The notes under the pieces were generated by a model that ran no database searches, was not told where the DNA came from, and saw only the letters and a program-made list of their open reading frames with translations. From a virus (lineage: Duplodnaviria; Heunggongvirae; Uroviricota; Caudoviricetes), in the IMG/VR virus record IMGVR_UViG_2778261570_000007, positions 1 through 15,215 of that record: DNA of 15,215 bases. One strand, written 5' to 3'. Within the stretch, counting starts at the first letter, position 1. The number at the start of each line of letters is the position of its first letter. Shown here in pieces: positions 1-15,215 of the stretch. A program made the translations under genes and the position numbers.

Positions 1-129
1 TTGAAAGCGCCTGTAACTGATGACATCAGCAGAGCGGTGGCTTTTGCCATTAAGTGGGTGGCTGTCGGTATCGCTGTGTCTCCGATTCTGTATGGGATGG
101 CAAAATTGATCATTGCTGTGAAATCGTAA
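1..129 (+). CDS. 3' end of an ORF entering from upstream of the window; hydrophobic C-terminal segment, function unknown
   Basis: Frame 1 is open from base 1 to TAA at 127-129 and translates to ...DDISRAVAFAIKWVAVGIAVSPILYGMAKLIIAVKS. The hydrophobic stretch suggests a membrane segment. No start codon is visible because the gene begins outside the window. Confidence 0.3.
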   Translation: MKAPVTDDISRAVAFAIKWVAVGIAVSPILYGMAKLIIAVKS

Positions 130-146
130 GTGGTGCGGGGGTAAAT

Positions 147-281
147 ATGCCAGATAGCATCATAAAACTAGCGAGGATTCTCTGTGTGGTTGTTGGCCTT
201 TCATTTTCAGTGATGCTGGTTGCCATTTTCATTGCTACTGCCTGGAGAGTCTTGAGCTTATCTGGATTGATTGGTGGATAG
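147..281 (+). CDS. Small single-pass membrane protein (44 aa), function unknown
   Basis: ATG at 147 is preceded by a G-rich SD-like stretch (ggtgcggggg). The product MPDSIIKLARILCVVVGLSFSVMLVAIFIATAWRVLSLSGLIGG contains one long hydrophobic helix. The tracked ORF 54..281 includes this; I prefer the internal start because of the RBS. Confidence 0.35.
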   Translation: MPDSIIKLARILCVVVGLSFSVMLVAIFIATAWRVLSLSGLIGG

Positions 282-286
282 CTGAC

Positions 287-469
287 ATGAGCCGAAAACA
301 CTGGACACACAGAGTGCCGCGAACGACGGCGAAATGGGCACTGGTAGCGATACTGGTGCCTTTTTTATTGGTGGGATGCGTCAGCCTGGATAAGGCGCGC
401 CAGCTTTTCGATACCGCTTCTCTGGTCTGTGAAATTGTCGACGGTGTTCGGCAGTGTCTGCAGAACTGA
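287..469 (+). CDS. Putative small lipoprotein (60 aa) with signal peptide and lipobox
   Basis: The product MSRKHWTHRVPRTTAKWALVAILVPFLLVGC... has a basic n-region, a hydrophobic h-region and an L-V-G-C lipobox. The mature part is about 29 aa with two further Cys. It starts 6 nt after the preceding small ORF. Confidence 0.45.
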   Translation: MSRKHWTHRVPRTTAKWALVAILVPFLLVGCVSLDKARQLFDTASLVCEIVDGVRQCLQN

Positions 470-640
470 TCGCCTGTAAGAGCAGAATATTTTGCTGAAA
501 AATGAAGGGTGCGCCAGCGTCCGGAAAGCATGAAATTCTGTGTTTGTGGCTACTCAATAAAATAAATTCTTTCTGTCGCCGCGAATACTCAAATGTTGAT
601 CAGTGCCCGGTGCGGCGACGGGCTTCGATATCAGGAGACG

Positions 641-940
641 ATGATGGAAAAAACAGAAAACAAACCGATTGTAATTGGTGCTGATGCTGCTCCGTTTAAG
701 TTTGAGTTGTCTCAACTGGTGGAGATGCGCATCAGTGATGAATGGGGTGAGGTTAAAGCCCGCGCGCAGTATGCGTATGGCGAAAACCAGTACCTGATCC
801 ACTACAAAGCAGCTGATGGTCGCGCCACGACGGAGTGGTTTGGTGAGTCAATGCTGGAAGCAACAGAAGATGATCGTCATCCTGGTTGTCCGGTATTTGC
901 TGGTATGAAATTGCCGGAAGGCGCGGTTGTTACTGAGTAA
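641..940 (+). CDS. Hypothetical soluble protein (about 99 aa) immediately upstream of cos
   Basis: Tandem ATG codons at 641 and 644 follow an aggag SD at 633-637. The ORF is in frame with tracked ORF 593..940. The product MMEKTENKPIVIGADAAPFKFELSQLVEMRISDEWGEVKARAQYAYGENQYLIHYKAADGR... is hydrophilic and I do not recognise it. Confidence 0.5.
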   Translation: MMEKTENKPIVIGADAAPFKFELSQLVEMRISDEWGEVKARAQYAYGENQYLIHYKAADGRATTEWFGESMLEATEDDRHPGCPVFAGMKLPEGAVVTE

Positions 941-1169
941 CGGGCATTACAGCAGCCCTTCTGTGTGAGGGGCTGCGATAATGCAACACAGGAATAAAAA
1001 TCGGCAGGGAAATCCGTTAAAGATATGCCGGTGGCGAAAGGATGCCAATGGCTCCTAACCTAACTCGATGTTTCGTTGAAAGCAATAAATCATGTTGCTG
1101 GAATGTGAATGAATGTTGTTTCCATGATGCGTGTCATGTTATGCGCATCCGATATGCAAACCATTCCTA

Positions 1170-1380
1170 TTTTCACGGGTCCTTTCCAGAACCTGAAATA
1201 CCGGGGGTCTGGGGACGCGCAAAAACGCGCTATTTATGAAAATTTTCAGGGAAAAAGCAGATCCGTTCTTCTTCTGGCTAACCTGTTGTTTAATAGAGTT
1301 TTCTTAAAAAAAAGAAAGGATCTGGCAGCGGTGATTTTTCGCTGAAAAAAGCGTTTTGAGATCCTTTCTTCTTTTTGTGA
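1170..1380. promoter_or_regulatory. cos: Lambda-type cohesive-end site (cosQ, cosN, cosB with R3, IHF site, R2, R1)
   Basis: cacgggtcctttcc (1174-1187) matches the lambda right-end sequence ACGGGTCCTTTCC. The cosN-like element gggtctggggac lies at about 1205-1216. It is followed by cgctatttatgaaaattttc (1228-1247), nearly identical to lambda positions about 25-45. ccgttcttcttc (1263-1274) is R3-like. aaagaaaggatct (about 1310-1322) and agatcctttcttc (about 1360-1372) are inverted R2/R1-like repeats. The Nu1 start follows at 1393, as in lambda. Confidence 0.75.
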
Positions 1381-1392
1381 GGAATATGTGCC

Positions 1393-1941
1393 GTGAAGGT
1401 TAACAAAAAGAAACTGGCGGAAATTTTTGAGTGCGATGTCAGAACAATCACTGGCTGGCAAAGTCAGGGGCTGAGAGTTTTGTCGGGGGGAGGCAAAGGT
1501 ATCGAAGCCATGTTCAATACTGCAGAAGCCATTGAGTGGTATGCGCAGCGGGAAAAAGATATCGAAAACGAAAAGCTCCGCAAAGAACTGGAAGATTTGC
1601 GTGCGACTGCAGAATCAGATTTACAACCCGGCACCATTGACTATGAACGCTACCGGTTAACCAAAGCACAGGCTGACGCACAGGAGCTGAAAAATGCCCG
1701 TGAAGAAGGGCTGGTGCTGGAAACGGAATTGTTTACCTTCATTCTGCAACGTGTGGCACAGGAGATTTCGGGGATACTTGTACGTGTGCCGCTGACATTA
1801 CAGCGTAAATATCCGGATATTTCACCGTCACACCTTGATGTGGTGAAAACTGAAATCGCGAAAGCCTCCAATGTTGCAGCTAAAGCCGGTGAAAACGTGG
1901 GCAGGTGGATTGATGATTTCAGACGCACAGAAGGCAGCTAA
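1393..1941 (+). CDS. nu1: Terminase small subunit (lambda Nu1 family)
   Basis: GTG start with gagga SD upstream. The N-terminus [70 protein letters not shown] closely parallels lambda Nu1 (MEVNKKQLADIF...GGGKG...ENEKLRREVEELR). It sits immediately downstream of cosB. Confidence 0.9.
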
Positions 1942-3829
1942 TGCAGCCGGTGCGATAGCTACAGGGCTTTTATCTCTCAATATTCCGGTTCCACTGACGA
2001 CAGTTCAGTGGGCTGATAAACATTATTATCTGCCGAAAGAATCTTCATATACCCCCGGACAATGGGAAACCCTGCCGTTTCAGGTTGCCATTATGAACAG
2101 CATGGGAAATGACCGGATCCGCACCGTTAATCTGATTAAATCGGCGCGCGTTGGTTACACCAAAATGCTGTTGGGGGTGGAGGCTTATTTTATTGAGCAT
2201 AAATCCCGTAACAGTCTGCTTTTTCAGCCAACAGATTCTGCTGCAGAAGATTTCATGAAATCTCATGTTGAGCCCACGATAAGGGATGTCCCTGCATTGC
2301 TGGAGCTGGCTCCATGGTTCGGAAGAAAGCACCGCGATAATACACTCACCCTGAAGCGTTTTTCCTCCGGTGTGGGTTTCTGGTGCCTTGGCGGCGCCGC
2401 TGCTAAAAACTACCGTGAAAAATCTGTGGATGTGGTCTGCTATGACGAACTCTCCTCGTTTGAACCGGATGTGGAAAAAGAAGGTTCGCCGACGCTGCTT
2501 GGCGATAAGCGTATCGAAGGCTCGGTATGGCCTAAATCCATACGTGGCTCAACGCCAAAAATTAAAGGCACCTGCCAGATTGAGAAAGCCGCAAATGAAT
2601 CAGCGCATTTCATGCGGTTTTATGTCCCTTGCCCTCATTGCGGGGAGGCCCAGTATCTGAAGTTTGGCGATGATGCGACGCCATTTGGCCTGAAATGGGA
2701 GAAGGGTAAACCGGAAACGGTGTATTACCTGTGTGAACATAATGGCTGTGTGATCCGGCAGTCGGAACTTGACCAGACCGACGGGCGCTGGATTTGTGAC
2801 AATACCGGGATGTGGACGCGCGACGGCCTGGCATTTTACAGCGCCGGCGATGAGGAGATGCCACCGCCGCGCTCCGTCACTTTCCACATCTGGACGGCGT
2901 ACAGTCCGTTCACCACCTGGGTACAGATTGTTTATGACTGGCTGGATGCGCTGAAGGATCCGAACGGTGTTAAGACGTTTATTAACACCACGCTCGGGGA
3001 GCCCTATGAAGAGGCCGTGGCAGAAAAACTGAGCTTTGAGTTGTTGCTGGAAAAAGTCTGCCACTATGGCGCGCAGGTTCCCCTGCGGGTGGTTTACCTG
3101 ACCGCAGGGATCGACTCCCAGAAAGATCGCTATGAAATTTATGTCTGGGGCTGGGCTCCCGGCGAAGAAGCCTTTCTGATTGATAAGCAAATTATCATGG
3201 GGCGACCGGAAGACGAGGACACCCTTAAACGTGTTGATACGGTGATCCGGAAAAAATATCGTCATGCTGACGGTACTGAAATTTCCATTTCCCGTGTCTG
3301 CTGGGATACCGGTGGTATCGACCAGGACATTGTGTATCAGCGTTCCAGGAAACACGGCACTTTTTTTGTGCTTCCCATAAAAGGGGCATCGGTGTACGGC
3401 AAGCCGGTGATCACCATGCCCAAAAAGCGCAACCAGCGTGGTGTGTTTTTGTGTGAGGTGGGCTCCGATACCGTCAAGGAAATGCTGTACGCCCGTTTTG
3501 CCCTGCCGGTGGTCTCTGCCAGTGAAGCCGCCCCGTATACCTTCCGTTTTCCGGATAACCCCGACATTTTTTCGGAAGAAGAGGCGCGTCAGATCGTGGC
3601 GGAAGAGCTGGTGGAGAAGGTGGTTAATGGCAGGGTGAAACTGCTGTGGGATAAAAAAGGGCGACGCAACGAAGCCCTCGACTGCCTGGTATATGCCTAT
3701 GCTGCCCTGCGTATTTCAGTTCAGCGGTGGCAGCTGGATCTTGAAGCACTGGCCCGTGCCAGAAGAGATGAGCAGGACGACGATGAGATGAGTCTGGAAG
3801 AAATCGCGGCTGCACTGAGTGGAGGATAA
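1913..3829 (+). CDS. A: Terminase large subunit (lambda gpA family; ATPase and endonuclease)
   Basis: Long colinear similarity to lambda gpA, for example [25 protein letters not shown], a P-loop-like [54 protein letters not shown] and [20 protein letters not shown] prefer the ATG at 1913 (aggtgg SD at 1903-1908; about 29-nt overlap with Nu1, similar to lambda) over the tracked 1871 start. Confidence 0.92.
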
Positions 3830-3832
3830 AGA

Positions 3833-4042
3833 ATGGTTTATACGCATGAAATGCTTTGTGATGCCCGACGGGCATTACATGAACTGATGATCGGACGTGC
3901 TGTGGTTTCCGTCAGCAAGGACGGGCGTCAGGTTCAGTATTCGCGGGCGACGATTGGTGAACTGCGTCAGTATATTGAAGAGCTGGAAAGTGCGCTGGGT
4001 GTATCCGGACGGCGTCGCGGCCCGGCAGGAGTGGGGCTGTGA
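3833..4042 (+). CDS. W: Head completion / DNA stabilisation protein (lambda gpW family)
   Basis: 69 aa with a ggagga SD. ARRALHELMIGRAVVSVSKDGRQVQYSRATIGELRQYIEELE...RRRGPAG parallels lambda W (AARAALHDLMTGKRV..QKDGRRV...YIAELE...RRRGPAG). Confidence 0.85.
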   Translation: MVYTHEMLCDARRALHELMIGRAVVSVSKDGRQVQYSRATIGELRQYIEELESALGVSGRRRGPAGVGL

Positions 4043-5610
4043 ACAGGGAACTGGTGGATCTTCACGGGCAGCCACTGCGGCAGAGTATGGGGTATTCCGG
4101 AGGGGGTACCGGATTTGGCGGGCAGCTTGCGGAATGGTTGCCTGCACCGGAAAGTGCCGACGTGGCGCTCTTACCTTCCATTCAGCTGGGTAACGCCCGT
4201 GCGGATGATCTGGTCCGTAACAACGGTATTGCCGCAAATGCAGTGGAAATTCATAAAGACCATATCGTCGGGCACATGTTTCGTCTGAGCTACCGGCCCA
4301 ACTGGCGCTGGCTGGGGATGTCGGAAGCTGATTCGCATGCCTTTATTGAAGATGTGGAGGCGGCGTGGATGGAATATTGCGATCCGGTGTTTGGTTCGAT
4401 GGATGTGGAAGGGCGTCGCTCGTTTACCGAATTTATTCGTGAAGGGGTGGGGGTCCATACGTTTAACGGTGAAATTTTTGTCCAGCCCGTATGGGATACG
4501 GAATCCACGTCATTATTCAGAACAAAATTCAAGACCATCAGTCCGAAGCGCGTCAGCACGCCCGGTTATGGTACCGGCGATCGTTTTATGCGTGCCGGAG
4601 TGGAAATCAACCGTTACGGAAAGGCGATGGCTTATCATGTTCAGGACGATGACTGGCCTGGTTACGGTGTCAGCAACTGGACACGGATTGCGGCGACGCT
4701 GCCCTCCGGGCGACCGGGAATGATCCATGTGTTTCAGCCGCAGGAGGACGGACAGACGCGCGGGGCCAACCAGTTTTATTCCGTGATGGAGCGCCTCAAG
4801 ATGCTCGACACACTGCAGGCCACGCAACTGCAGTCGGCGGTGGTGCGGGCGATGTATGCCGCGACGATTGAATCCACTCTGGATTCAGAAAAAGCATTTG
4901 AATATATCGCCGGGGTGGGAGATGGCGGTAAAAATCCCCTGAACACCATCATGAAAGGCTACGCGCGTTATTACGCCACCAATACGGTAAAGCTGGGCGG
5001 GGTCCGTATTCCGCATCTTTATCCGGGGGATTCACTGAATCTGCAGACAGCGCAGAATGCAGATAATGGTTTCTCTGAACTGGAAAAGGCGCTGTTACGT
5101 TACATTGCTGCCGGGCTGGGGGTGTCCTATGAACAGCTTTCCCGTGATTATTCACAGGTCAGTTATTCCAGTGCCAGGGCATCCGCCAATGAGTCGTGGC
5201 GGTATTTTATGGGCAAACGAAAATTTGTGGCCAGCCGACTGGCATCACAGATGTTTGCCTGCTGGCTGGAGGAAGCTCTTATTCGCGGTGTGATCCGCCC
5301 GCCGAAATCCCGTTTTTCATTCTGGGAGGCCCGTTCCGGATGGTGTCGTGCCGAGTGGATTGGTGCCGGTCGCATGGCGATTGATGGCCTTAAGGAAGTG
5401 CAGGAGGCGGTGATGCGTATTGAAGGTGGCCTGAGCACGTACGAGAAAGAGCTGGCCCTGATGGGCGATGACTATCAGGAGATTTTCCGCCAGCAACTGC
5501 GTGAAAGCCAGGAGCGACAGGCAGCGGGTCTTCCCCGCCCCATCTGGATAAAGGACACGTTTCAGCAGCAGATCCGACAGACAACGGGAGAAAATGGCGA
5601 TGCGTCGTAA
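4039..5610 (+). CDS. B: Portal protein (lambda gpB family)
   Basis: GTG start overlapping the W stop by 4 nt, as in lambda. Extensive similarity to lambda gpB, for example GNARADDLVRNNG, FNGEIFVQPVWDT, GQTRGANQFYSVMERLKMLDTLQATQLQSA, LRYIAAGLGVSYEQLSR and MAIDGLKEVQEAVMRIEGGLSTYEKE. Confidence 0.92.
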   Translation: MNRELVDLHGQPLRQSMGYSGGGTGFGGQLAEWLPAPESADVALLPSIQLGNARADDLVRNNGIAANAVEIHKDHIVGHMFRLSYRPNWRWLGMSEADSHAFIEDVEAAWMEYCDPVFGSMDVEGRRSFTEFIREGVGVHTFNGEIFVQPVWDTESTSLFRTKFKTISPKRVSTPGYGTGDRFMRAGVEINRYGKAMAYHVQDDDWPGYGVSNWTRIAATLPSGRPGMIHVFQPQEDGQTRGANQFYSVMERLKMLDTLQATQLQSAVVRAMYAATIESTLDSEKAFEYIAGVGDGGKNPLNTIMKGYARYYATNTVKLGGVRIPHLYPGDSLNLQTAQNADNGFSELEKALLRYIAAGLGVSYEQLSRDYSQVSYSSARASANESWRYFMGKRKFVASRLASQMFACWLEEALIRGVIRPPKSRFSFWEARSGWCRAEWIGAGRMAIDGLKEVQEAVMRIEGGLSTYEKELALMGDDYQEIFRQQLRESQERQAAGLPRPIWIKDTFQQQIRQTTGENGDAS

Positions 5611-7216
5611 TTTATCGCATATTGCCGCCATGGCATTTAATGAGCCGCTTTTACTGGAACCCGCCTATGCGCGGGTTTTCTTTTGCGCGCTGGGTAAAGA
5701 GATGGGAGCCGGCAGCCTTGCCGTTCCTCAGCAGGCTGTTCAGCTTGATGCTGATGGTATGCAACTGGCTGTGACTGACTATATGGCGGGCGGTCAGCGT
5801 CCGGCAAAGAGTTACCAGGTGAAGAATGGCATCGCCATTCTTCCGGTGAGCGGCACGCTGGTGCATAAACTGGGTACCCTGCGGCCTTACTCCGGCATGA
5901 CTGGCTATGACGGCCTGACGGCCCGCCTTCAGATGGCGGTGAATGATCCGGATGTGCGCGGCATTTTGCTGGATATCGACAGCCCGGGCGGTCAGGCTGC
6001 CGGGGCGTTTGACTGTGCTGACATGATTTACCGTCTGCGGGAACAGAAGCCCGTGTGGGCGCTGTGTAATGACATGGCCTGTTCAGCCGCCATGTTGCTG
6101 GCGGCAGCCTGTACCCGTCGGCTGGTCACGCAGACGGCAAAAATTGGTTCGATTGGCGTGATGATGGCGCACACCAGTTACGAGAAACAACTGGCACAGG
6201 AAGGGGTGGACATCACGCTGATTTACTCCGGGCAGCATAAGGTTGACGGCAACAGTATTCAGGCATTGCCGGCAGGTGTGCGTGCAGATTTTCAGCGCCG
6301 TATTGATGAGGCCCGCCGGATGTTTGTCGACAAGGTGGCGCTTTATACGGGGCTGAGTTCAGAGGCGGTGATGAATACCGAGGCTGCCGTTTATGACGGT
6401 CAGGCAGGCATTGATGCAGGCCTGGCTGATCAACTGATTAATGCTGCAGATGCCGTTGAAGTGATGGTTTCTGCACTGAATGACTCTGTTACGAAGGAGA
6501 ATACAATGACTGTTAAAAATCTCACCGTTGCTGAAGCGGTGGCCCAGGAAAATCAGCGCGTGATGGGGATCCTGAATTGTCAGGAGGCGAAAGGGCGCGA
6601 GCAACTGGCGCAAATGCTGGCAGGTCAGCCAGGAATGACGGTTGAGCAGGCGAAAACGTTGCTTGCAGCTGCGCCGGTTGCCGGTACTGACAGCACGGGC
6701 GATCAGATTATGGGGCTGCCGGAAGCAAAGGGGCGTGAGCAACTGGCACAGATGCTGGCAGGTCAGCCGGGGATGACGGTGGAGCAGGCGAAAGCGTTTC
6801 TGGCGGCAGCCCCTGCTGCTGGTGCTGCAGGCACAGGCGATCAGATTATGGCGTTACCGGAAGCAAAAGGGCGTGAACAACTCGCGCAGGCGCTGGCTGA
6901 ACAGCCGGGAATGACCGTTGACCAGGCCAAAACGTTACTGGCGGCGGCACCGGTTGCGGGTTCTGCAAGTGTCGGCGATCAGATTATGGCGCTGCCGGAG
7001 GCAAAAGGGCGCGAGCAACTTGCACAGGCACTGACAGAACAACCGGGAATGACGGTGGCGCAGGCGAAAACGCTGCTGGCAGCCGCGCCGGCGGCATCGC
7101 AACCGTCACAGGAAACACTTTTTGATCGCTTTATGGCACAGCATGCTGCCAGTGCGGTTTCCGGTGGCGGAACTGCCGGGCGCGGGGAGGAAGACCTGCT
7201 GATGAGTATGCCGTAA
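5594..7216 (+). CDS. C: Capsid maturation protease (S49/ClpP-like, lambda gpC family) with an expanded C-terminal scaffold domain
   Basis: Overlaps B by 17 nt. The N-terminus HIAAMAFNEPLLLEPAYARVFFCAL matches lambda C (HIASMAFNEPLMLEPAYARVFFCAL). Protease-core motifs include PYSGMTGY, ILLDIDSPGG, VWALCNDMACSAA and RRLVTQTAKIGSIGVMMAH. At 540 aa it is about 100 aa longer than lambda C because of internal tandem repeats. Confidence 0.9.
   Translation: MAMRRNLSHIAAMAFNEPLLLEPAYARVFFCALGKEMGAGSLAVPQQAVQLDADGMQLAVTDYMAGGQRPAKSYQVKNGIAILPVSGTLVHKLGTLRPYSGMTGYDGLTARLQMAVNDPDVRGILLDIDSPGGQAAGAFDCADMIYRLREQKPVWALCNDMACSAAMLLAAACTRRLVTQTAKIGSIGVMMAHTSYEKQLAQEGVDITLIYSGQHKVDGNSIQALPAGVRADFQRRIDEARRMFVDKVALYTGLSSEAVMNTEAAVYDGQAGIDAGLADQLINAADAVEVMVSALNDSVTKENTMTVKNLTVAEAVAQENQRVMGILNCQEAKGREQLAQMLAGQPGMTVEQAKTLLAAAPVAGTDSTGDQIMGLPEAKGREQLAQMLAGQPGMTVEQAKAFLAAAPAAGAAGTGDQIMALPEAKGREQLAQALAEQPGMTVDQAKTLLAAAPVAGSASVGDQIMALPEAKGREQLAQALTEQPGMTVAQAKTLLAAAPAASQPSQETLFDRFMAQHAASAVSGGGTAGRGEEDLLMSMP
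6506..7216 (+). CDS. nu3: Putative Nu3-like scaffolding protein from an internal in-frame start within C
   Basis: A strong SD aaggaga (6494-6500) precedes an in-frame ATG at 6506 (MTVKNLTVAEAVAQENQRVMGILNC...). In lambda, Nu3 is nested in-frame in the 3' part of C. Internal initiation here is inferred, not demonstrated. Confidence 0.5.
   Translation: MTVKNLTVAEAVAQENQRVMGILNCQEAKGREQLAQMLAGQPGMTVEQAKTLLAAAPVAGTDSTGDQIMGLPEAKGREQLAQMLAGQPGMTVEQAKAFLAAAPAAGAAGTGDQIMALPEAKGREQLAQALAEQPGMTVDQAKTLLAAAPVAGSASVGDQIMALPEAKGREQLAQALTEQPGMTVAQAKTLLAAAPAASQPSQETLFDRFMAQHAASAVSGGGTAGRGEEDLLMSMP
6584..7135 (+). repeat. In-frame tandem repeat, four copies of 138 bp (46 aa), inside the C/Nu3 coding region
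   Basis: Unit starts at 6584, 6722, 6860 and 6998 (period exactly 138 nt). Each encodes about EAKGREQLAQMLAGQPGMTVEQAKTLLAAAPVAG-x6-GDQIMALP. Copies differ by point substitutions and the last copy diverges at its 3' end. Confidence 0.85.
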
Positions 7217-7254
7217 GCGATATCCGGAATTCAGATAAATCAGGAGGCTGAAAA

Positions 7255-7590
7255 ATGATTAAAACCACCACGGAAAAGCGTGCAGATGTGCGCATTTTTG
7301 CCGGAAGCGATCCGGCGCATACCGCAACAGCCACCAGTGGTATCAGTGCTGCCACACCTGCACTGACGCCACTGATGGTGGATGACGCCACCGGAAAACT
7401 GGTTGTCTGGGATGGTCAGAAAGCCGGAACGGCTGTGGGTGTGCTGGCTCTGGCGCTTGCCGGGACCGAGCCCATGCTGACGTACTACAAAAGCGGTACG
7501 TTTGCCACTGAGTCGCTGGTCTGGCCTGGTTCGGTGGATGCGGTGAAAAAAGCCAACGCATTTGTGGGAAGTGCCATCAGCCACGCCTGA
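7255..7590 (+). CDS. D: Head decoration protein (lambda gpD family)
   Basis: 111 aa with a caggagg SD. [38 protein letters not shown]...[15 protein letters not shown]...AFVGSAIS parallels lambda gpD ([27 protein letters not shown]...KLVAWDG...FYKSGTF...AFAGTAIS). Confidence 0.9.
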   Translation: [111 protein letters not shown]

Positions 7591-7612
7591 TGGTGAAGTG
7601 ATTAACTGAAAA

Positions 7613-7642
7613 AACGGGTCGCGATGCGGCCCGTTTGTGTTT
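7613..7642 (+). terminator. Stem-loop with U-rich tail between D and E (candidate partial terminator or mRNA-stabilising hairpin)
   Basis: aacgggtcgc (7613-7622), loop gat, gcggcccgtt (7626-7635): a 10-bp stem including one G-U pair, followed by tgtgttt. It lies 18-47 nt upstream of the E start. Confidence 0.4.
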
Positions 7643-7659
7643 CTGAAGGAAAATAAATT

Positions 7660-8688
7660 ATGGGGTTATTTACCACGCGTCAGTTACTCGGGTACACCGA
7701 GCAGAAAGTGAAATTTCGTGCGCTGTTTCTGGAGCTGTTCTTTCGTCGCACGATCACTTTCCATACTCAGGAAGTCATGCTGGATAAAATTACCGGCAAA
7801 ACACCGGTTGCAGCGTATGTGTCTCCGGTGGTGTCAGGCAAAGTGCTGCGCAGCCGTGGTGGTGAAACCCGTGTGTTACGTCCCGGTTATGTAAAACCAA
7901 AACACCGCTTTGATTATCAGCAGGCAGTGGAACGTCTTCCGGGAGAAGATCCGGCCCGCCTTAATGACCCGGCTTACCGCCGTCTGCGTATTCTGACGGA
8001 CAACCTGAAACAGGAAGAGCAGGCGATTGTGCAGGTGGAAGAAATGCAGGCAGTCAGTGCTGTTCTGCAGGGTAAATACACTATGAGCGGCGAGCAGTTT
8101 GAGACGGTGGAAGTGGATTTTGGGCGTTCTGCCGCCAATAACATTACGCAGGCTGGCGGACGCGAATGGTCAAAGCAGAATGCTGACACCTTTGATCCGA
8201 CGCATGATCTTGATGCGTACTGCGATTTTGCTTCCGGTACCATCAATATCGCGATTATGGACGGCACGGTCTGGCGTATGCTGAACGGTTTTAAACTGTT
8301 CCGTGAAAAACTGGATACCCGCCGTGGCTCCAAATCTGAGCTGGAAACCGCACTGAAAGACCTGGGGTCCGTGGTTTCCTTTAAGGGCTGGTACGGCGAT
8401 CTGGCTGTCGTGGTGGCGAAGACAACGTATGTTGACGAAAACGGGGATGAACAGCGTTATCTGCCGGAAGGCACACTGATTCTGGGAAATACCCAGGCGG
8501 AAGGCGTCCGTTGCTATGGCGCAATCCAGGATAATCAGGCGCTGAGTGAAGGGATCACCTCTGCGATTCGTTATCCGAAACACTGGGAGGAAGTGGGGGA
8601 TCCTGGTTGCGAATATACCATGACGCAGTCTGCGCCGTTGATGGTGCTGCCGGATCCGGATGCGTTTGTGGTGGTTCAGGTGAAATAA
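7660..8688 (+). CDS. E: Major capsid protein (lambda gpE family)
   Basis: 342 aa (lambda E is 341). Extensive colinear similarity: YVSPVVSGKVLRSRGG, PGYVKPKH, EDPARLNDPAYRRLRI, AIVQVEEMQAVSAVLQGKYTMSGEQF, NNITQAGGREWSK, KLDTRRGSKSELETALKDLG, LGNTQAEG and TMTQSAPLMVLPDPDAFVVVQ. Confidence 0.93.
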   Translation: MGLFTTRQLLGYTEQKVKFRALFLELFFRRTITFHTQEVMLDKITGKTPVAAYVSPVVSGKVLRSRGGETRVLRPGYVKPKHRFDYQQAVERLPGEDPARLNDPAYRRLRILTDNLKQEEQAIVQVEEMQAVSAVLQGKYTMSGEQFETVEVDFGRSAANNITQAGGREWSKQNADTFDPTHDLDAYCDFASGTINIAIMDGTVWRMLNGFKLFREKLDTRRGSKSELETALKDLGSVVSFKGWYGDLAVVVAKTTYVDENGDEQRYLPEGTLILGNTQAEGVRCYGAIQDNQALSEGITSAIRYPKHWEEVGDPGCEYTMTQSAPLMVLPDPDAFVVVQVK

Positions 8689-8693
8689 GACAG

Positions 8694-8719
8694 GGCGGGA
8701 TATTCCCGCCTTTTTCTTT
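8694..8719 (+). terminator. Rho-independent terminator-like hairpin immediately after E
   Basis: ggcggga (8694-8700), loop tat, tcccgcc (8704-8710): a perfect 7-bp GC-rich stem followed by tttttcttt (8711-8719). Confidence 0.7.
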
Positions 8720-8738
8720 AGCGCACGGGAGAGATGTG

Positions 8739-9104
8739 ATGACAAAAGAGCAGATGACTAAACGTTTGCAGGAACTGGCAGTGATTCTGGGGCGTGAAGC
8801 AGATATTTCAGGTTCAAAAGCCGATCTTGAGCAGCGTCTGGCGGAATGGGAGGAGGAGGCCGCTGGATTCGATGGGGAGGAGACGGGGAAGGAAGAGGTG
8901 GGCAACGATGCATCCGGCGACGGAATGCATTCTGAGCAGGGACTCGCCCGGGTGCGTATGCTGAAAACGGCGCATATGCCAGCCTGTGATGCTGTGACGG
9001 GAAAAATGTTGATGTTTGCCCGGGCCTCCAGTGTTGTGCTGGTTAATGAAGCCGCAGTTCCTGCGTTGCTGGCAGACGGTCTGGCAGAAAAAATCCGGGA
9101 GTGA
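8739..9104 (+). CDS. FI: DNA packaging / head assembly protein (lambda gpFI family)
   Basis: ATG at 8739 with a gggagag SD, in frame with tracked ORF 8607..9104. The N-terminus MTKEQMTKRLQELAVILGREADISGSKADLEQRLAEWEEE resembles lambda FI (MTKDELIARLRSLGEQL...GTKEEL..RVAELKEE). The middle is acidic and the C-terminal domain hydrophobic, as in FI. Confidence 0.75.
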   Translation: MTKEQMTKRLQELAVILGREADISGSKADLEQRLAEWEEEAAGFDGEETGKEEVGNDASGDGMHSEQGLARVRMLKTAHMPACDAVTGKMLMFARASSVVLVNEAAVPALLADGLAEKIRE

Positions 9105-9508
9105 TGATGTTCGATAATCTGTTCGATCAGGCCATGAGTGATGCGGATGACATCATCCTGGATACGATGGGGACGGAAATCAGCATATATCCGGGCGGCA
9201 CGGAAAGAAAAATCCGTGCCGTTTTTGATGCCCCGGCAGATAACACCGGGATGAACACTGGCAGCGGCGAAATTCGTGATACTGCGCCCGTGTTATTTAC
9301 CCGGAGCGCATGGGCCGCCGGTCTGAAAAAATATGACAGGGTCATGATCCACGGCGAACCCTATCAGGTAGTCGATCCCGGCTGGGATGAGTCAGGCGCT
9401 GCGGGTCAGGGGGTGATTACCATCACCCTTGCGCGTGGAGAGCCCGGGAGAAATACACCTGCTGCACCGGAACGACCGAGTAAACGTTATGGCAGTCAGA
9501 GAGCATGA
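9104..9508 (+). CDS. FII: Head-tail connector protein (lambda gpFII family)
   Basis: MMFDNLFDQAMSDADDIILDTMGTEISI...AVFDAP...PVLFTRS...GLKKYDRVMIHGE parallels lambda FII (MADFDNLFDAAIARADETIRGYMGTSATI...GVFDDP...PSLFVRTDE...LRRGDTLTIGEE). The start overlaps the FI stop. The exact start (GTG 9101, ATG 9104 or ATG 9107) is uncertain. Confidence 0.8.
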   Translation: MMFDNLFDQAMSDADDIILDTMGTEISIYPGGTERKIRAVFDAPADNTGMNTGSGEIRDTAPVLFTRSAWAAGLKKYDRVMIHGEPYQVVDPGWDESGAAGQGVITITLARGEPGRNTPAAPERPSKRYGSQRA

Positions 9509-10211
9509 ACGAAGCAGTGCCCGGCAGCGACGGCTGGCACGAAACCTCGTTGTCGATATTGATGAAGATGAGGTGCTGAAAATTATCGCTAAACTGGGTG
9601 GGTCAAAAAGTCAGATCCGTAAAGCCTGGGGCGTGGCGCTGAAAAGAGCCGCGTCTGCACTGCGGATGAAGGCTATGGCAGAGTTTAAAAAACAGGTTGC
9701 CCCACGCAGTCAGAAAATGATCAAAAAGCGTGTTCTGCATAATTTTATCATTCGTCGTAACGGTGATGAGTTTGATGAGGCGAAGGTATGGTTCGGTCTG
9801 AACGCCATCAAAGTACGCGATCTGCGCGGACGCATCAGTGGGGGACGACGCGGCGAACGCCATCAGTTGCGCGATGAGCGGGGGCGTTTTGCACCAGCTT
9901 CCAGCCGCAGGAAGGCTCGGGAGATCAGTTTTAAACCTGCCGGGGAATCCCTGCCTGTCACCGCCTGGTCAACGGATGATGCCTTTATCAACCAGTTCGA
10001 AGCGGAAAATCGTAACGGACGTATATCAAAAAGGAAAACGATACTGATCCGACAGGCATCCGGACGACGGAGGGTGCGTGAAGCGGAAATTGATATTTAT
10101 GAAGCCATGCTGAACCGTATAGAGGATTTTGTTTTTCCGGATGCGGAAGCACTGATCCTGAAAAATTTTGAGCATGAACTGAAATTCCGGGTATTTAAGG
10201 GGCTGGAGTGA
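9489..10211 (+). CDS. Putative tail-completion protein, possibly lambda gpZ-like (basic, about 240-260 aa)
   Basis: Sits where lambda has Z (after FII, before U). Highly basic composition with Z-like segments (KRAASALRMKAMAEFKKQV...; AKVWFGLNAIKVRDLRG versus lambda Z ARIKVNRGDLPVIKLGN). The similarity is weak and from memory. The start is uncertain (tracked ATG 9429 overlaps FII by 80 nt; the in-frame ATG at 9489 has a poor SD). Confidence 0.4.
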   Translation: MAVREHERSSARQRRLARNLVVDIDEDEVLKIIAKLGGSKSQIRKAWGVALKRAASALRMKAMAEFKKQVAPRSQKMIKKRVLHNFIIRRNGDEFDEAKVWFGLNAIKVRDLRGRISGGRRGERHQLRDERGRFAPASSRRKAREISFKPAGESLPVTAWSTDDAFINQFEAENRNGRISKRKTILIRQASGRRRVREAEIDIYEAMLNRIEDFVFPDAEALILKNFEHELKFRVFKGLE

Positions 10212-10774
10212 TGGAGCCATTGATGATGGGAGCCTGGCATCAGGCGGTGATTGACAGTCTGAAACAAATTCCCTGGGTGGAAGATGCCGATGAGTACCCG
10301 GAAAAAGTGACGCAACTGGTGACGCCTGCCGTGTTTGTGGATGTGCCCGGCTGGGACAAGGCTCAGTTTGCCGACGGGCAGACGCGGGTCACGCTGAAAT
10401 GCGATCTGTTTGTGGTGACTGACCGGGCCGGGAAGACGGAGAACGTGCCAAAACCGCAGATATTTGCCCGCTGTCTGGCAATGGATTTATCTGACTGGAT
10501 TGATGGAGCCACGTTCGGGCTGGATAACGTTTACCCGGCTGTTTTTATCGATGCTGAGGTGGATACCTTCGACCGGCTGCTGGACGACTACATCGTTTTC
10601 CGTGTCTCTTTCGAACAGGACATTCCGGTCGGCGAAGATCCGTTTGCAGTTCAGGCAGGTGCGCCGTTACAGGAAGTCTGGCTGGGTAAAGTACCGGAAA
10701 CCGGTAAAAAGCATGTGCAGGATTATCGTCTTATCTGGAAAGCGGAGGGCACCGGCGATGAGTCTGGCGGATGA
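10211..10774 (+). CDS. Putative tail terminator / tail-completion protein, possibly lambda gpU-like, with a C-terminal extension
   Basis: Lies after the Z-like gene, where lambda has U. AVIDSLKQ...PAVFVDVPG...TRVTLKCDLFVV loosely parallels lambda U (AAVLDALEK...PAVAVYLTG...ELHIEVFL). The start overlaps the upstream stop (GTG 10208 / ATG 10211). At 187 aa it is longer than lambda U (131 aa). Confidence 0.45.
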   Translation: MEPLMMGAWHQAVIDSLKQIPWVEDADEYPEKVTQLVTPAVFVDVPGWDKAQFADGQTRVTLKCDLFVVTDRAGKTENVPKPQIFARCLAMDLSDWIDGATFGLDNVYPAVFIDAEVDTFDRLLDDYIVFRVSFEQDIPVGEDPFAVQAGAPLQEVWLGKVPETGKKHVQDYRLIWKAEGTGDESGG

Positions 10775-11381
10775 AGTGGCTGAGTTACGCCGCAGGGTGG
10801 CGGACATGGTCCGTCGCGGCGTGGTGGAAGTGGTGATCCCGGGTAGCCCGGTGATGGTCCGGGTGGATATCGGAGATGTGCTTTCGCCGCCGTTGCCCTG
10901 GATTCAGGTGCAGTCCGGGCGTTACATGCAGGTCAGTAATTACCCGGCACCAGGAGATGCGGTCACGGTGATATCGGAGGCAGGTGATCTGCGTAATGGT
11001 CGGGTGTATCCGGGGGCCAACATTGACGCGATTCCGGTACCGGCGGGCAGTGAACACGAGCATGTTATTTTGTTTGATACCGGAACGGAGATCCGTTACG
11101 ACCGCAAGGCTAATGCCCTGTCCATCACGCTGGCTGAAGGCGGCAGCTATAAAATCACCGGCAGGGGAATGCTTGACGGTCCGGTGGAAATCACGGATAC
11201 CCTGACTGTGCAGGGAAAAACGAAGATTAATGCCGATACGCAGGTTCTGGGCAATATCGGTGCCTCACAGGAGATCACCGACAAAACCGGTAGCATGAGT
11301 AAAATTCGCGAAATTTATAATACTCATGATCACCCTGGCGACAGCGGGGGAACCACCCGTAAACCTAACCAGGAAATGTGA
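10758..11381 (+). CDS. V: Baseplate assembly / spike protein (P2 gpV family)
   Basis: ATG at 10758 with a ggaggg SD, overlapping the upstream stop by 17 nt. The N-terminus MSLADEVAELRRRVADMVRRGVV parallels P2 V (NIQELARALRNMIRTGII). The C-terminal NTHDHPGDSGGTT matches the P2 V motif HTHKHPGDSGGTT. The tracked ORF 10464..11381 contains this frame. Confidence 0.85.
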   Translation: MSLADEVAELRRRVADMVRRGVVEVVIPGSPVMVRVDIGDVLSPPLPWIQVQSGRYMQVSNYPAPGDAVTVISEAGDLRNGRVYPGANIDAIPVPAGSEHEHVILFDTGTEIRYDRKANALSITLAEGGSYKITGRGMLDGPVEITDTLTVQGKTKINADTQVLGNIGASQEITDKTGSMSKIREIYNTHDHPGDSGGTTRKPNQEM

Positions 11382-11402
11382 ACGCCGCACCGGCGTTTTT
11401 TT
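11382..11402 (+). terminator. Terminator-like hairpin with T-run between V and W (candidate attenuator)
   Basis: acgccg (11382-11387), loop cac, cggcgt (11391-11396), followed by a 7-T run (11396-11402). The next gene starts at 11415 without an obvious SD. Confidence 0.4.
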
Positions 11403-11414
11403 CGGAAAAATTTC

Positions 11415-11771
11415 ATGATTGGTATTGATTCCGCCACTGGCAGATATCTGCACGGTAACGAACATCTGCGTCAGTCCGTCACCGATATTTTATCAACACC
11501 GGTCGGCAGCCGGGTACTTCTCAGGGAATACGGCAGCAGGTTGTTCAGTCTGCTTGATAACCCGCAGGATGATTTTACGCGGGTGAGGATTGTCCGTGAA
11601 ACGGCAACCGCCCTTGAACGCTGGGAGCCCCGCCTGACCCTCCGGCGGGTGGAGGTGACGTGGACAGGAGAAGGAAGCGCCTGGCTGACGCTTGTCGGGG
11701 TGAACAACGAAACACAGGAAACGATTCGACTCGAGGAGATAAAAATTGGCAGCATCTCAGGCCATTATTGA
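11415..11771 (+). CDS. W: Baseplate wedge protein (P2 gpW / T4 gp25-like family)
   Basis: 118 aa. SVTDILSTPVGSRVLLREYGSRLFSLLDNPQ...ALERWEPRLTL parallels P2 W (SIGDILRTPVGSRVMRRDYGSLLASMIDQPQ...KWEPRVTL). Confidence 0.85.
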   Translation: MIGIDSATGRYLHGNEHLRQSVTDILSTPVGSRVLLREYGSRLFSLLDNPQDDFTRVRIVRETATALERWEPRLTLRRVEVTWTGEGSAWLTLVGVNNETQETIRLEEIKIGSISGHY

Positions 11772-12660
11772 TCTGTCCGCGATACCTGTACCGGATGCGG
11801 TGGAGGTGCCGGACACCGCTGTACTGGTCACTCAGATAGTGGCGAAATATCAGGAACTGGACACGTTGTTTTCGGCCCTGGTGGAATCTGATCCCGCGTA
11901 TAAATGGGCAGAGGCGCTGGCTTTTCGGGTGGCGCTGATGCGCCAGCAGATAAATGATGCTGTCCGTGCTGTACTGCTTGCCAGTGCCGGTGGGAGCGAT
12001 CTGGATCAGGTTGGCGCGAATTATCAGGTTCAGCGGCTGGTCATTACCCCGGCAGACGACAGCACCATTCCGCCCACGCCGGCGGTGTATGAACATGATG
12101 ACGCTTTTCGCGAACGTATCCAGTTGTCGTGGGCACGGCTCAGCACCGCCGGCGCGAAAAATGCGTATCACTATTTTGCACAAAGTGCTGATCCTGATGT
12201 GCTGGATGTGAAGGCTTACGGGCCGGAAACGCATTCGCAGGAAGGTCGGGTTTTTCTTTATGTGTTATCCCGCTCCGGAAATGGCACTGCACCACAACCC
12301 CTGCTGGATAAGGTGGCAGCATCAGTCAGTGATGATGAAACCCGTCCCCTGACGGATTTTGTCAGTGTCCGGACGGCAGAAATTATTCCCTACGATGTGG
12401 TGGCGGATATTCATATTCCCTACGGACTGGATGGTGAACTGGTTATGTCAAATGCCCGCAAGGCGCTGCAGTCATACACTGACAGCGTCCACCGGATTGG
12501 CTCGGTGGCATCCCGTTCCGGCATGGATGGTGCCCTTCACCAGACCGGGGTGATTACGGTGAATCTGACCTCTCCGGGCAGTGATATCGTTCCTGCGATG
12601 GGGCAGGCACCGTGGTGCCGTAAGGTAACGCTGAATAAGGTGGAGACAACTGATGAATGA
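11746..12660 (+). CDS. J: Baseplate assembly protein (P2 gpJ family)
   Basis: TTG start at 11746 preceded by a gaggag SD (11733-11738). IIDLSAIPVPDAV, LDQVGANYQVQRLVITPADDSTIPPTPAV and a C-terminal ...TTDE parallel P2 J (IIDLNQLPAPDVV, LDVIGANYNTTRLTITPADDSTIPPTPAV, ...GGSDE). Confidence 0.88.
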   Translation: MAASQAIIDLSAIPVPDAVEVPDTAVLVTQIVAKYQELDTLFSALVESDPAYKWAEALAFRVALMRQQINDAVRAVLLASAGGSDLDQVGANYQVQRLVITPADDSTIPPTPAVYEHDDAFRERIQLSWARLSTAGAKNAYHYFAQSADPDVLDVKAYGPETHSQEGRVFLYVLSRSGNGTAPQPLLDKVAASVSDDETRPLTDFVSVRTAEIIPYDVVADIHIPYGLDGELVMSNARKALQSYTDSVHRIGSVASRSGMDGALHQTGVITVNLTSPGSDIVPAMGQAPWCRKVTLNKVETTDE

Positions 12661-13243
12661 CGATATCAGGAGCATACTGCCGGTCAGTGCCAGCCGGGCA
12701 GAGCGGGTGGTGGACTGTGTCTCCGGAGATATGCTGTCAGACATAGCGGTCTGCCTGATCCGCTATGTGAAAAATCCCGATTTATGCCCTGCTGAATTGC
12801 TGCCATGGCTGGCCTGGGAAATGGCGGTGGATACCTGGAATGAACACTGGACGGAGACGGAAAAAAGGTCTGCGATAAAACGTGCTGCTTACATCCACCG
12901 ACACAGAGGGACTAAAGCGGCGCTGATGGCATCGCTGGCTGACAGTCCCTTCCGGTCGCAGATTGTTGAGTGGTATGAGCAGACCCCGCCCGGGGAGCCG
13001 TATACCTTTCGTCTGAACGTGGAACAGAAGGATTTACCGGTGCTGATGAATGATCATCAGGATCTTAAGCATGCGGTGCTCCGTGCCAAAAATCTGCGCA
13101 GCTGGTTCAGTATTCACGTTTACGGGAACAGCACAGGGCGTGGATTTGGTTACGGCTATGTGATGGCGACAGAAAAAATCAGAAGTACTGGTGTGACAAC
13201 AAAGACAGTGCCCACAGGCGGGCAGAGTGAGGCAGGTGTATGA
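12653..13243 (+). CDS. I: Baseplate / tail protein (P2 gpI family)
   Basis: NPDLCPAELLPWLAWEMAVDTWNEHWTETEKRSAIKRAAYIHRHRGTKAAL...EWYEQTPPGEPYTFRL parallels P2 I (NPDTCPANLLPWLAWAFSVDRWDEKWPEATKRAVIRDAYFIHCHKGTIGAV...EWWENSDPPGTFRL). Overlaps J by 8 nt. Confidence 0.85.
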   Translation: MNDDIRSILPVSASRAERVVDCVSGDMLSDIAVCLIRYVKNPDLCPAELLPWLAWEMAVDTWNEHWTETEKRSAIKRAAYIHRHRGTKAALMASLADSPFRSQIVEWYEQTPPGEPYTFRLNVEQKDLPVLMNDHQDLKHAVLRAKNLRSWFSIHVYGNSTGRGFGYGYVMATEKIRSTGVTTKTVPTGGQSEAGV

Positions 13244-14499
13244 ATGGACTGATTCTGACAACGTCCGGCGCTGCAGAAATTGAAGCAGCATATCAGAACG
13301 GGCAAACCGTGACCGTCCGGCATGTTCTGCTTGGTGACGGGGGCGGGCGGGCATTGCCATCCACGCCGGATGAAATGGCAGCAATGACATCGTTGTACGG
13401 CGAATTCGGGCAGGAACCCTTTTCCGACGGTGCGATGGAGGAGGGCTTCATCAGCGGGGATATTGTGATTGACTGTAAATCATACCCCGGTAAAACCCTT
13501 CGTGAACTGGGGATGATCAGCGACAGAGGTACGCTTATCGCGTACGGACGTTATCCCGACACCTTTTTACCAGACCAGACGGACTCCGTTATCAAGGAAG
13601 TTATTCTGACGCTGGTTCTTGGGCTGACGCACGCACAAAACGTGGTGCTGGAAGTTGATCCGGACAGGGCCATTATTACTCAGGAAATCGGAGACAGACG
13701 CTATCTGCAACGAAAAAAGAATCTTTCGGATGTGGAAGACAAGGATGAGGCTGTTGAAAACCTCGGATTAAAACCCACGGTGGACAAGGCAAAAAATGCC
13801 GTTCAGCGTGATGGTGACACCATGACCGGGGAGCTGAAAATCCGTGGTGTTAATGCGCTGAGGATTTTCAACGAAGCCTTTGGCCTGATTTTTCGTCGTT
13901 CGGAAGAGTGCCTGCACCTTATTCCAACACAGGAAAACCAGGGTGAAAATGGCGATATTGGTCCACTTCGCCCGTTCACTATTAATCTGCGGACGGGTGA
14001 AATATCCATGTCGCATAAAGTGTCTGTTGGTGGCGGTTCTCAGGTGAATGGTGCGCTGGGTATCGGCGTTCAGAATGCCCTGGGCGGAAACTCAATTGCT
14101 TTCGGGGATAACGATACCGGCCTGAAACAGAATGGTGATGGCCTGCTGGATGTTTATGCCAATGGTCAGCACGTATTCCGTTTTCAGAATGGCGCGTTAC
14201 AAAGTAACCGGGCGGTGAACGTTACTGGGCGGGTAACACCGTCAGACTACGGAAACTTTGATGCCCGTTACCAGACCAAAACAGGCGGCGTGCAGGATGT
14301 GCGTTATGGTTCCGAAATGTATTACAACCCGGGAGGTAACGAGATAACCTGGACGTTTCGCTCACCTTCAGGCCACGGATTATCCGGTATTTATGTGCAG
14401 GATACCGGAAGAAGTTCGGCAGATAACATTGGTGGTGTGTATTACAGACCGCTTCAGAAACTGATTAACGGCACCTGGTATAACGTGGCGAGTGTTTAA
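13240..14499 (+). CDS. H: Tail fibre protein (P2 gpH family), short form
   Basis: The N-terminus (TTSGAAEIEAA...VTVRHVLLGDGGG) and the C-terminal region (KAKNAVQRDGDTMTGEL; NALGGNSIAFGDNDTGLKQNGDGLLDVYANGQHVFRFQNG; GNFDARY; YRPLQKLINGTWYNVASV) parallel P2 H (NAVQKNGDTLSGGL; NALGGSSIVLGDNDTGFKQNGDGILDVYANSQRVFRFQNG; FRPIQKYINGTWYNVAQV). At 419 aa it is much shorter than P2 H as I recall it. Confidence 0.85.
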   Translation: MNGLILTTSGAAEIEAAYQNGQTVTVRHVLLGDGGGRALPSTPDEMAAMTSLYGEFGQEPFSDGAMEEGFISGDIVIDCKSYPGKTLRELGMISDRGTLIAYGRYPDTFLPDQTDSVIKEVILTLVLGLTHAQNVVLEVDPDRAIITQEIGDRRYLQRKKNLSDVEDKDEAVENLGLKPTVDKAKNAVQRDGDTMTGELKIRGVNALRIFNEAFGLIFRRSEECLHLIPTQENQGENGDIGPLRPFTINLRTGEISMSHKVSVGGGSQVNGALGIGVQNALGGNSIAFGDNDTGLKQNGDGLLDVYANGQHVFRFQNGALQSNRAVNVTGRVTPSDYGNFDARYQTKTGGVQDVRYGSEMYYNPGGNEITWTFRSPSGHGLSGIYVQDTGRSSADNIGGVYYRPLQKLINGTWYNVASV

Positions 14500-14501
14500 C
14501 A

Positions 14502-15044: not shown

Positions 15045-15063
15045 AAAAGAAGTTAATCATCTG

Positions 15064-15086
15064 ACCGCCTGAGGGCGGTTTTTTTA
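15064..15086 (+). terminator. Rho-independent terminator after the tail fibre assembly gene
   Basis: accgcc (15064-15069), loop tgag, ggcggt (15074-15079), followed by a 7-T run (15079-15085), about 20 nt after the G stop. Confidence 0.7.
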
Positions 15087-15098
15087 TGGGAGAAATGT

Positions 15099-15164
15099 AT
15101 GTCCGGATTACATGGTGTTGAAACCATTGAACTGACGACAGGCACGGTTGCCGTGCAGACGTAA
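15099..15164 (+). pseudogene. Tail sheath-like N-terminal fragment (21 codons then TAA)
   Basis: ATG at 15099 with a gggag SD (15088-15092). MSGLHGVETIELTTGTVAVQT* resembles the N-terminus of the P2 FI sheath (MSDYHHGVQVLEINEGTRVISTV...) but ends at TAA 15162-15164. The remaining 51 nt in any frame do not look like sheath sequence. Confidence 0.35.
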
Positions 15165-15215
15165 GCGGCTCGTCAGAACCGTATTGATATTTACTGAGAG
15201 CTCAGATCAACTTTC

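Follow-up and report, generated by a model that had tools for sequence, protein, structure and literature searches.

T4 PinA and T7 Gp4.5 are phage-encoded inhibitors of the host protease Lon, and in phage lambda the interval between the lysis genes and cos hosts morons such as bor. On the host side, HspQ is an activator and substrate of Lon as well as an inhibitor of ClpS, and acetylation of its Lys96 switches it between these roles (PMC6719616). Here, we analyze a small gene in a 15,215-nt stretch of DNA from a virus of the class Caudoviricetes (IMG/VR record IMGVR_UViG_2778261570_000007, positions 1 to 15,215; hereafter the window). The gene belongs to a catalogued but uncharacterized phage family, that of PHROG 1935, PHROG 8618, and phiP27 L33, from which the window protein shows no difference and which has no assigned function, fold, or name. 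We find it very probable that this is a real accessory gene whose product contains an HspQ-like barrel.

A conserved gene of an uncharacterized phage family

The open reading frame (ORF) under study can be read from either of two neighboring ATG codons, at positions 641 and 644 (Table 1). Since ATG 644 is better spaced from the Shine–Dalgarno core (6 nt, vs. 3 nt for ATG 641), it is the likelier start; the 98-residue RefSeq form of the protein, WP_000415821.1, begins there, and the N termini of homologs concur. A third in-frame ATG at position 593, which gives 115 residues, is the start chosen for L33 in the phiP27 record. The product, with a predicted size of ~11 kDa, is hydrophilic and acidic, with a grand average of hydropathy (GRAVY) of -0.48, an isoelectric point (pI) of 4.7, and a net charge of -8, and its sole cysteine lies within an HPGCPVF motif (nt 878 to 898). 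An earlier reading of this DNA, made from its letters alone (the sequence-only reading), had described an ORF with a good Shine–Dalgarno sequence and a hydrophilic product with one cysteine in this motif, and both descriptions hold.

Length alone is no proof that the ORF is a gene, since 47 ORFs in the window reach at least 80 residues. The protein matches PHROG 1935 with an E value of 1.2e-59, residues 2 to 99 aligning with profile positions 1 to 98 of 116, and PHROG 8618 with an E value of 9e-25, both labeled "unknown function". It is 98% identical to phiP27 L33, a name that one phage record already gives to its homolog. Homologous proteins form 79 clusters from E. coli, Shigella, Salmonella, and Yersinia, all named "hypothetical protein" in their sources, and the gene was found in 165 of 5426 complete E. 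coli genomes. RefSeq annotates WP_000415821.1 in the E. coli E41 prophage, which is 99.8 to 100% identical to the window. Among 53 distinct alleles, the median pairwise ratio of nonsynonymous to synonymous substitution rates (dN/dS) is 0.17, which indicates purifying selection, and variable sites at codon positions 1, 2, and 3 number 36, 27, and 65, respectively. The ORF is a genuine gene under purifying selection, and a non-essential one. Lack of conservation, which the sequence-only reading had named as a ground for giving up its proposal, was not what we found, and neither was another such ground, clear homology to a housekeeping phage protein.

That the sequence-only reading had matched the protein to no family agrees with our searches. 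No model in Pfam (E ≤ 1), NCBIfam, or PADLOC matches it, a PDB search with its single sequence gave no match, and literature searches found no published mention of phiP27 L33, phrog_1935, or WP_000415821. With a profile built from 30 sequences, exhaustive HMMER searching retrieved 725 representative clusters at E ≤ 1e-3, which have in common a core of ~57 residues (about residues 18 to 73 of the window protein) with the consensus FKFxLxQxVxIxxSGExGxVxGRAEYxxxENxYLvxYkAADGRAvexWWxESxL. The family, for which there is no Pfam or NCBIfam model, ranges over temperate phages of proteobacteria, including Stx2e-type prophages, and many of its members are stand-alone proteins of 56 to 75 residues. When distant members were compared with the databases, 20 of 20 matched both phrog_8618 and phrog_1935, and 0 of 20 matched NCBIfam. 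The enterobacterial subfamily carries an additional C-terminal extension, whose consensus in its longer form is EDDRHPGCPVFAxxxLPEGAVV; P80, G81, P83, V84, L90, and P91 are conserved at 90% or more in the alignment of close homologs (A1). Since some relatives have M, W, or A in place of C82 in HPGCPVF, this residue is neither catalytic nor metal-binding.

The core is predicted to be a small barrel and is probably related to HspQ

Structure prediction, a check that the sequence-only reading had recommended, gave a confident five-stranded barrel. With 30 close homologs, AlphaFold2 produced a poor model, with a predicted local distance difference test (pLDDT) score of 53; with an alignment of 91 sequences (A2), the pLDDT rose to 89, with a predicted template modeling score of 0.73. 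The predicted strands are at residues 24 to 28, 34 to 41, 49 to 55, 61 to 67, and 71 to 73. A Foldseek search with this model gave 5ycq as the best match, with an E value of 2.5e-3 (the next match had 5.6e-2), and the predicted model shares the fold of this solved HspQ structure (PDB 5YCQ). A fold search in BFVD returned matches limited to uncharacterized small barrels.

The same relative was reached by profile comparison. Using hhalign, A2 was paired with a single HspQ sequence at a probability of 56.7% and with 20 HspQ orthologs at 87.7% (E 3.4e-6, 77 columns), the latter being a shallow profile whose sequences are at least 77% identical to one another. The score was 39.2, vs. 11.3 ± 2.5 (maximum 20.5) for 100 column-shuffled HspQ controls and 12.5 for a reversed-alignment control. 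The match spans the whole barrel and the D-x-H-P..P motif that follows it, EDDRHPGCP of the window protein being paired with QDEHPEQPS of HspQ, and it stops at HspQ residue 89, beyond which the phage protein runs for 11 more residues of unrelated sequence. Both proteins are small, acidic, and cytoplasmic, HspQ having a pI of 4.5. Unlike HspQ, the phage protein has no insert of ~15 residues between strands β2 and β3, the conserved polar residues of its family differ (S-x-E-x-G, R40, AADGR, and W65), and its gene is patchy and phage-borne, whereas HspQ is encoded by a chromosomal core gene.

Several points weigh against the relationship with HspQ or against a role like that of HspQ. The close-homolog profile A1 alone fails to detect HspQ, the YccV-like model PF08755 is matched by the window protein not even at E ≤ 1, and this model is absent from the 25 families that were listed at E ≤ 0.1 for the 91 relatives. 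S31, E33, and R40, conserved polar residues of the phage family, are not kept in HspQ, and the C-terminal tail of HspQ with Lys96 (about residues 90 to 105), which is tied to regulation of Lon and ClpS, is missing from the phage protein. In addition, literature searches found no experimental work on any family member. Since the Pfam model matches neither the window protein nor, among the families listed, its 91 relatives, any homology to HspQ is remote. The other candidates among small barrels are more distant: the best match in a PDB profile search was the MOF chromo-barrel, at a weak E value of 0.13, and Tudor-knot matches 3 of the 91 members, again weakly (best E 0.03). As these sequence matches are not significant, Tudor, chromo-barrel, and KOW domains would be structural analogs or very distant relatives. 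Taken together, the model and the profiles suggest that the core is an SH3-like barrel that resembles the YccV/HspQ domain most closely and is probably its homolog.

An optional gene in a variable slot with a conserved 3' stem-loop

The sequence-only reading had placed the gene between the lysis region and cos, in a position that hosts accessory cargo, and had called for a comparison of cos-proximal regions. The location is as described, with lysis-type ORFs upstream and a lambda-like cos, nu1, and gpA downstream, and the comparison revealed presence and absence of the gene between close relatives. The window and phiP27 share a block, 287 to 984, with 96.4% identity. In the window, phiP27, and the Stx2e prophage ETEC1703, the gene is present with a near-identical leader and hairpin, and the sequences diverge right after position 984. 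In the Stx2i prophage of E. coli CFIAFB20180511 (L192), cos, nu1, and A are 98.7% identical to the window and the lysis genes are related, and tblastn found no homolog of the gene. Since this prophage has no homolog despite sharing cos and the terminase, the gene is dispensable cargo in a variable slot. At about 2960 to 3500 of L192, unrelated A+T-rich sequence fills the slot, and RefSeq annotates no gene across about 760 bp.

Both flanks of the gene are conserved, to different extents. The 5' leader hardly differs in phiP27 and the ETEC1703 prophage and is ~80 to 85% conserved in a prophage of the same type, L029, where the preceding gene differs (an Rz/Rz1-type ORF); it is not conserved at the Salmonella or L008 homolog loci. 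The stem-loop directly after the stop codon is a 41-nt imperfect palindrome with a folding energy of -28.5 kcal/mol (z = -5.95). Almost every enterobacterial lambdoid locus has it 3' of the gene, the loci of Salmonella, where protein identity is 63%, and of a Yersinia phage included, and across the E. coli, Salmonella, and Yersinia-phage loci it is more strictly conserved than the coding sequence. It has 16 pairs, of which 3 show compensatory changes, and a loop that varies from about 3 to 9 nt. The stem-loop is also found behind a different coding end in some phages and is doubled around an insertion in L029, so it is a general junction that is not unique to the gene. From these comparisons, we take it for a conserved junction at which modules are exchanged, or a 3' boundary of the cassette, which perhaps also acts as an RNA 3'-end element or stabilizer. 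Two other roles were rejected: an intrinsic terminator, as there is no U-tract in the window or in most loci, and a cassette-specific recombination site, as it follows other coding sequence and is duplicated around the insertion. An Rfam search of window positions 1 to 1500 found nothing credible.

A classical moron would be an autonomous unit of leader, ORF, and hairpin that is transcribed while the prophage is repressed and is of advantage to the lysogen. As with the lambda morons of the lysis–cos interval, such as bor, our gene shows presence/absence polymorphism among close relatives in a known cargo slot and forms a compact cassette with a strong 3' stem-loop: a unit of ~505 bp (480 to 984) moves as a block with sharp homology breaks, and its 160-nt leader is kept in L029 although the upstream gene differs. 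However, a scan with a strict sigma-70 consensus found no promoter-like site on the + strand of positions 1 to 1500, the hairpin is without the U-run of a factor-independent terminator, and the base composition is not deviant (G+C 0.488 for the gene, vs. 0.53 for the window and 0.514 for nu1 plus A). Moreover, some homologs lie inside head operons, where start codons overlap or adjoin the stop codons of neighbors, and others are in early gene clusters. The gene also differs from bor-type morons in being on the late-operon strand, and its product differs from lambda Bor in being cytoplasmic and no lipoprotein, its N terminus (MEKTENKPIVIGADAAPFKF) being hydrophilic (GRAVY -0.48), with no signal peptide or lipobox. 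We thus regard lysogenic conversion by a classical moron as unlikely. Of the candidate moron in the sequence-only reading, the place in a slot for accessory cargo is supported, but an autonomous unit is not.

The prophage L029 offers a comparison. Directly after the hairpin, it has an insertion of ~850 bp (1025 to 1850; G+C 0.32 to 0.35) with an ORF of 177 residues at 1075 to 1608, a promoter-like site at 1069 to 1097, and an intrinsic terminator at 1625 to 1647; a second copy of the hairpin follows, after which window-like sequence resumes. This insert, with a G+C of 0.322 for the moron beside the gene, looks like a textbook moron, which the gene under study does not.

Genomic neighborhoods across the wider family

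We surveyed the neighborhoods of homologs in two sets of loci. In 46 of 63 IMG/VR loci that extend far enough past the gene, the next large ORF encodes a GpA-type large terminase subunit (TerL), starting ~1.2 kb (median) downstream. A phiP27-type TerL preceded by an HNH gene was found in 7, a series of ParB_N, TET-associated glycosyltransferase (TAGT), Terminase_2, and Terminase_6N in another 7 (determined in L028), and a similarly distant large ORF in two further loci. In the second set, 93 loci of distant members, the neighbors are mostly early replication or DNA-modification genes. These include DnaB, primase, D5_N, AAA_25, ParB_N, DUF2800, and SNF2, as well as C5 and N6 methylases, dNMP kinase, reverse transcriptase, and serine recombinase. 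A TerL is recognizable within 5 kb in at least 11 of these 93 loci, no more than genome size predicts. Burkholderia phage Bcep176 gp32 likewise lies among small early genes.

A nucleic-acid-binding regulator, in which a YccV-, Tudor-, or KOW-like barrel would bind hemimethylated DNA, RNA, or the transcription machinery, would fit the frequent DNA methyltransferases among the neighbors. HspQ/YccV was originally named a hemimethylated-DNA-binding protein, and some sources still use that name; the weak profile similarity to a chromo-barrel (E 0.13) also fits. However, the net charge is strongly negative family-wide, there is no conserved basic surface motif, the chromo and Tudor matches are not significant, and the proximity of methylases may be no more than chance would give in early or late accessory regions. 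Such a regulator is in our view decidedly unlikely.

A role as a DNA-packaging helper was suggested by position. The small barrel would assist the small terminase subunit (terS) or recognition of cos/pac, as for the HNH protein before terS in HK97-like phages. In the enterobacterial subfamily, the gene immediately precedes terS, or cos and terS, with a GpA- or P27-type TerL ~1.0 to 1.2 kb (median) downstream in 53 of the 63 IMG/VR loci. Relatives are found upstream of a DUF1441 terS and, for one of 59 residues, directly before a GP3_package terS, and a Salmonella relative precedes an unclassified terS and TerL with a Mu-F-type head module. In HP1/P2-like prophages, the homolog comes directly after terS gpM and before gpL; in Yersinia prophages there is an 11-nt overlap with the terS stop, and in phage ESSI2_ev040 the homolog begins 3 nt past terS. 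The same survey speaks against the idea. At least five packaging modules, with unrelated terminase types, adjoin the gene (Nu1/GpA; HNH with P27 terS/TerL; DUF1441/GpA; ParB–TAGT–Terminase_2; and P2 gpM), so no specific terminase partner co-varies with it. ParB and TAGT genes intervene before terS in L028-type phages, TerL is not in excess among the 93 wider-family loci, the protein is acidic, and the prophage with 98.7%-identical cos, nu1, and A has no such gene. A functional tie to the small terminase subunit, which five adjoining terS types had suggested, was dropped after inspection of the 93 distant loci and the terminase-matched phage without the gene, and we rate a packaging role as quite improbable. 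Since the neighbors of distant members are mostly early genes and TerL is not enriched, the family appears from these neighborhoods to be a mobile accessory domain and not a terminase partner. The gene is optional phage cargo and most likely neither a classical moron nor a packaging gene.

A minor virion or head-completion component would fit the place of the gene between terS and the head–tail adaptor gene in Peduoviridae-type prophages, but phages with otherwise identical head modules can do without the gene, family members are mostly in non-structural regions, and PHROG gives no structural annotation, which makes this reading very improbable. The idea of a spurious ORF or decaying remnant, to which truncated or fused variants among some database entries might point, has a negligible chance and is effectively refuted by the dN/dS, the enrichment of third-position variation, the family of 725 representative clusters, and the confident fold prediction.

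We also noted a diversity of architectures and arrangements. In several proteins (P0080, P0087, P0108; P0113, P0121, P0157; P0154, P0190), the barrel is found as tandem duplicates, joined to CxxC...CxxC zinc-ribbon tails (DnaJ/anti-TRAP-like, weak matches), or joined to Lcl_C (PF07603) domains. No functional lead was obtained from the Lcl_C, zinc-ribbon, and tandem forms. Other fusions look like prophage decay: in P0097, a GpA-nuclease-like motif (GVDTQKDGFYFYV) is upstream of the barrel domain, and in P0088, the signal of the upstream lipoprotein is joined to the barrel. The N terminus of a further fusion, P0092, is what we take to be similar to a tail-fiber-assembly protein. In Bcep176 (L095, 3995 to 4745), the GenBank note "phage P27p33-like" sits on gp33, on the opposite strand, and the family hidden Markov model detects the domain in no ORF but the one that contains gp32, so that the annotation may have been misplaced. 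A ParB_N protein and a TAGT (PF20691) are encoded between the gene and a Terminase_2 terS in one group of E. coli prophages (L028, 5534 to 7409), an arrangement that points to a module for DNA hypermodification at the packaging end of their genomes. Finally, seven distant-member loci (L103, L106, L111, L114, and three more) have an RVT_1 reverse transcriptase of 454 to 541 residues on the same strand; in the four that are named here, it lies 1 to 2.5 kb downstream of the gene for the domain.

Features surrounding the gene

The features of the locus are collected in Table 1. The E41 prophage has the order two holins, GH108 endolysin, three small ORFs, the gene, and the small and large terminase subunits. 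In the window, the three small ORFs downstream of the endolysin gene fall within positions 1 to 469 and have no match in Pfam; they may take the place of the usual pair of Rz/Rz1 spanins. Positions 336 to 361, within the lipoprotein ORF, contain a terminator-like hairpin with a T-run. Further downstream, the region that we take to be a lambda-like cos resembles, as we read it, cosN and cosB of lambda (CGCTATTTATGAAAATTTTC, CCGTTCTTCTTC). An ORF of 78 residues at 1109 to 1345, annotated in E41 as the hypothetical protein WP_064578933.1, overlaps this region and is probably not a gene.

Table 1. Positions of the gene and its surrounding features in the window
Feature	Position	Strand	Basis or match
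Single-pass membrane peptide ORFs	1-129 and 147-281
Small lipoprotein ORF (lipobox LVGC, 51-60 aa), end of lysis region	287..469	+	phiP27 L32
Conserved 5' leader, with small GCCCG...CGGGC stem at 604-622	480..640	+	Comparison of loci
Shine–Dalgarno core AGGAG	633..637	+	Read from sequence
ORF under study	ATG 641 (99 aa) or ATG 644 (98 aa), stop 938-940	+	Sequence reading, ORF list
Coding sequence, 98 aa + stop	644..940	+	phiP27 L33 / WP_000415821.1
Core domain, aa 18-73, predicted five-stranded SH3-like beta-barrel	695..862	+	Common to phrog_8618 and phrog_1935
C-terminal extension, aa 74-91, EDDRHPGCPVFAxxxLP	863..916	+	Only in enterobacterial subfamily
Stem-loop directly after stop codon, without U-tract	944..984	+	Folding and conservation
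Lambda-like cos region (approximate limits)	1205..1330	.	Our reading against lambda cos
nu1, terminase small subunit	1393-1941		E41 annotation
gpA, terminase large subunit	1871-3829		E41 annotation

Proposed role and significance

On the reading we favor, an accessory HspQ-like barrel that binds protein, to which as a whole we give a little less than an even chance, a dispensable gene of temperate enterobacterial phages would encode an acidic, cytoplasmic barrel protein of ~11 kDa with a subfamily-specific extension. Because the gene is on the strand of the lysis and head genes and has no promoter-like site of its own, its product would be made in lytic growth through read-through of the Q-dependent late transcript, which we consider rather probable. 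Membership in an operon is also supported by the overlap or abutment of homologs with terS and by the ordinary G+C. As the consensus used in the scan was strict, the conserved 160-nt leader may nevertheless contain a weak or non-sigma-70 promoter. The protein would bind another protein, and not DNA, during the lytic cycle. Protein binding is preferred to DNA binding because of the pI and charge of the protein, the family median pI of 4.9, and the pI of HspQ; we put such protein binding during the lytic cycle at somewhat under even odds.

What such a protein might bind is more speculative. By analogy with HspQ, a mimic without the tail would engage host AAA+ proteolysis through Lon or the ClpS adaptor, thereby changing how fast host or phage proteins are turned over; that Lon or ClpS is the target is doubtful, and it is unlikely that the phrog_8618/1935 family as such is a minimal phage mimic of HspQ that docks on host Lon or ClpS. 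Having no regulatory tail, this mimic would escape degradation and constitutively rewire or block AAA+ proteolysis, which could shield phage proteins or prevent abortive-infection or toxin–antitoxin responses that are triggered by proteases. T4 PinA and T7 Gp4.5, small phage proteins that act on a host AAA+ protease, would be functional analogs at most. Late expression would be an odd timing for a host-takeover factor; distant relatives are in early regions.

What is new here is a confident fold prediction, a probable relationship with YccV/HspQ, and a conserved junction hairpin. If the link to HspQ is false, the gene is simply another conserved hypothetical accessory gene. If it is true, a widespread family of tiny proteins gains a fold, a superfamily, and a testable target in host Lon/ClpS proteolysis, and would be a candidate new class of host-manipulation or anti-defense factors. 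Whatever the function, the 3' stem-loop, as we read it, offers a precise exchange junction for lambdoid modules and true morons, which helps to annotate the cargo slots of Stx-type prophages.

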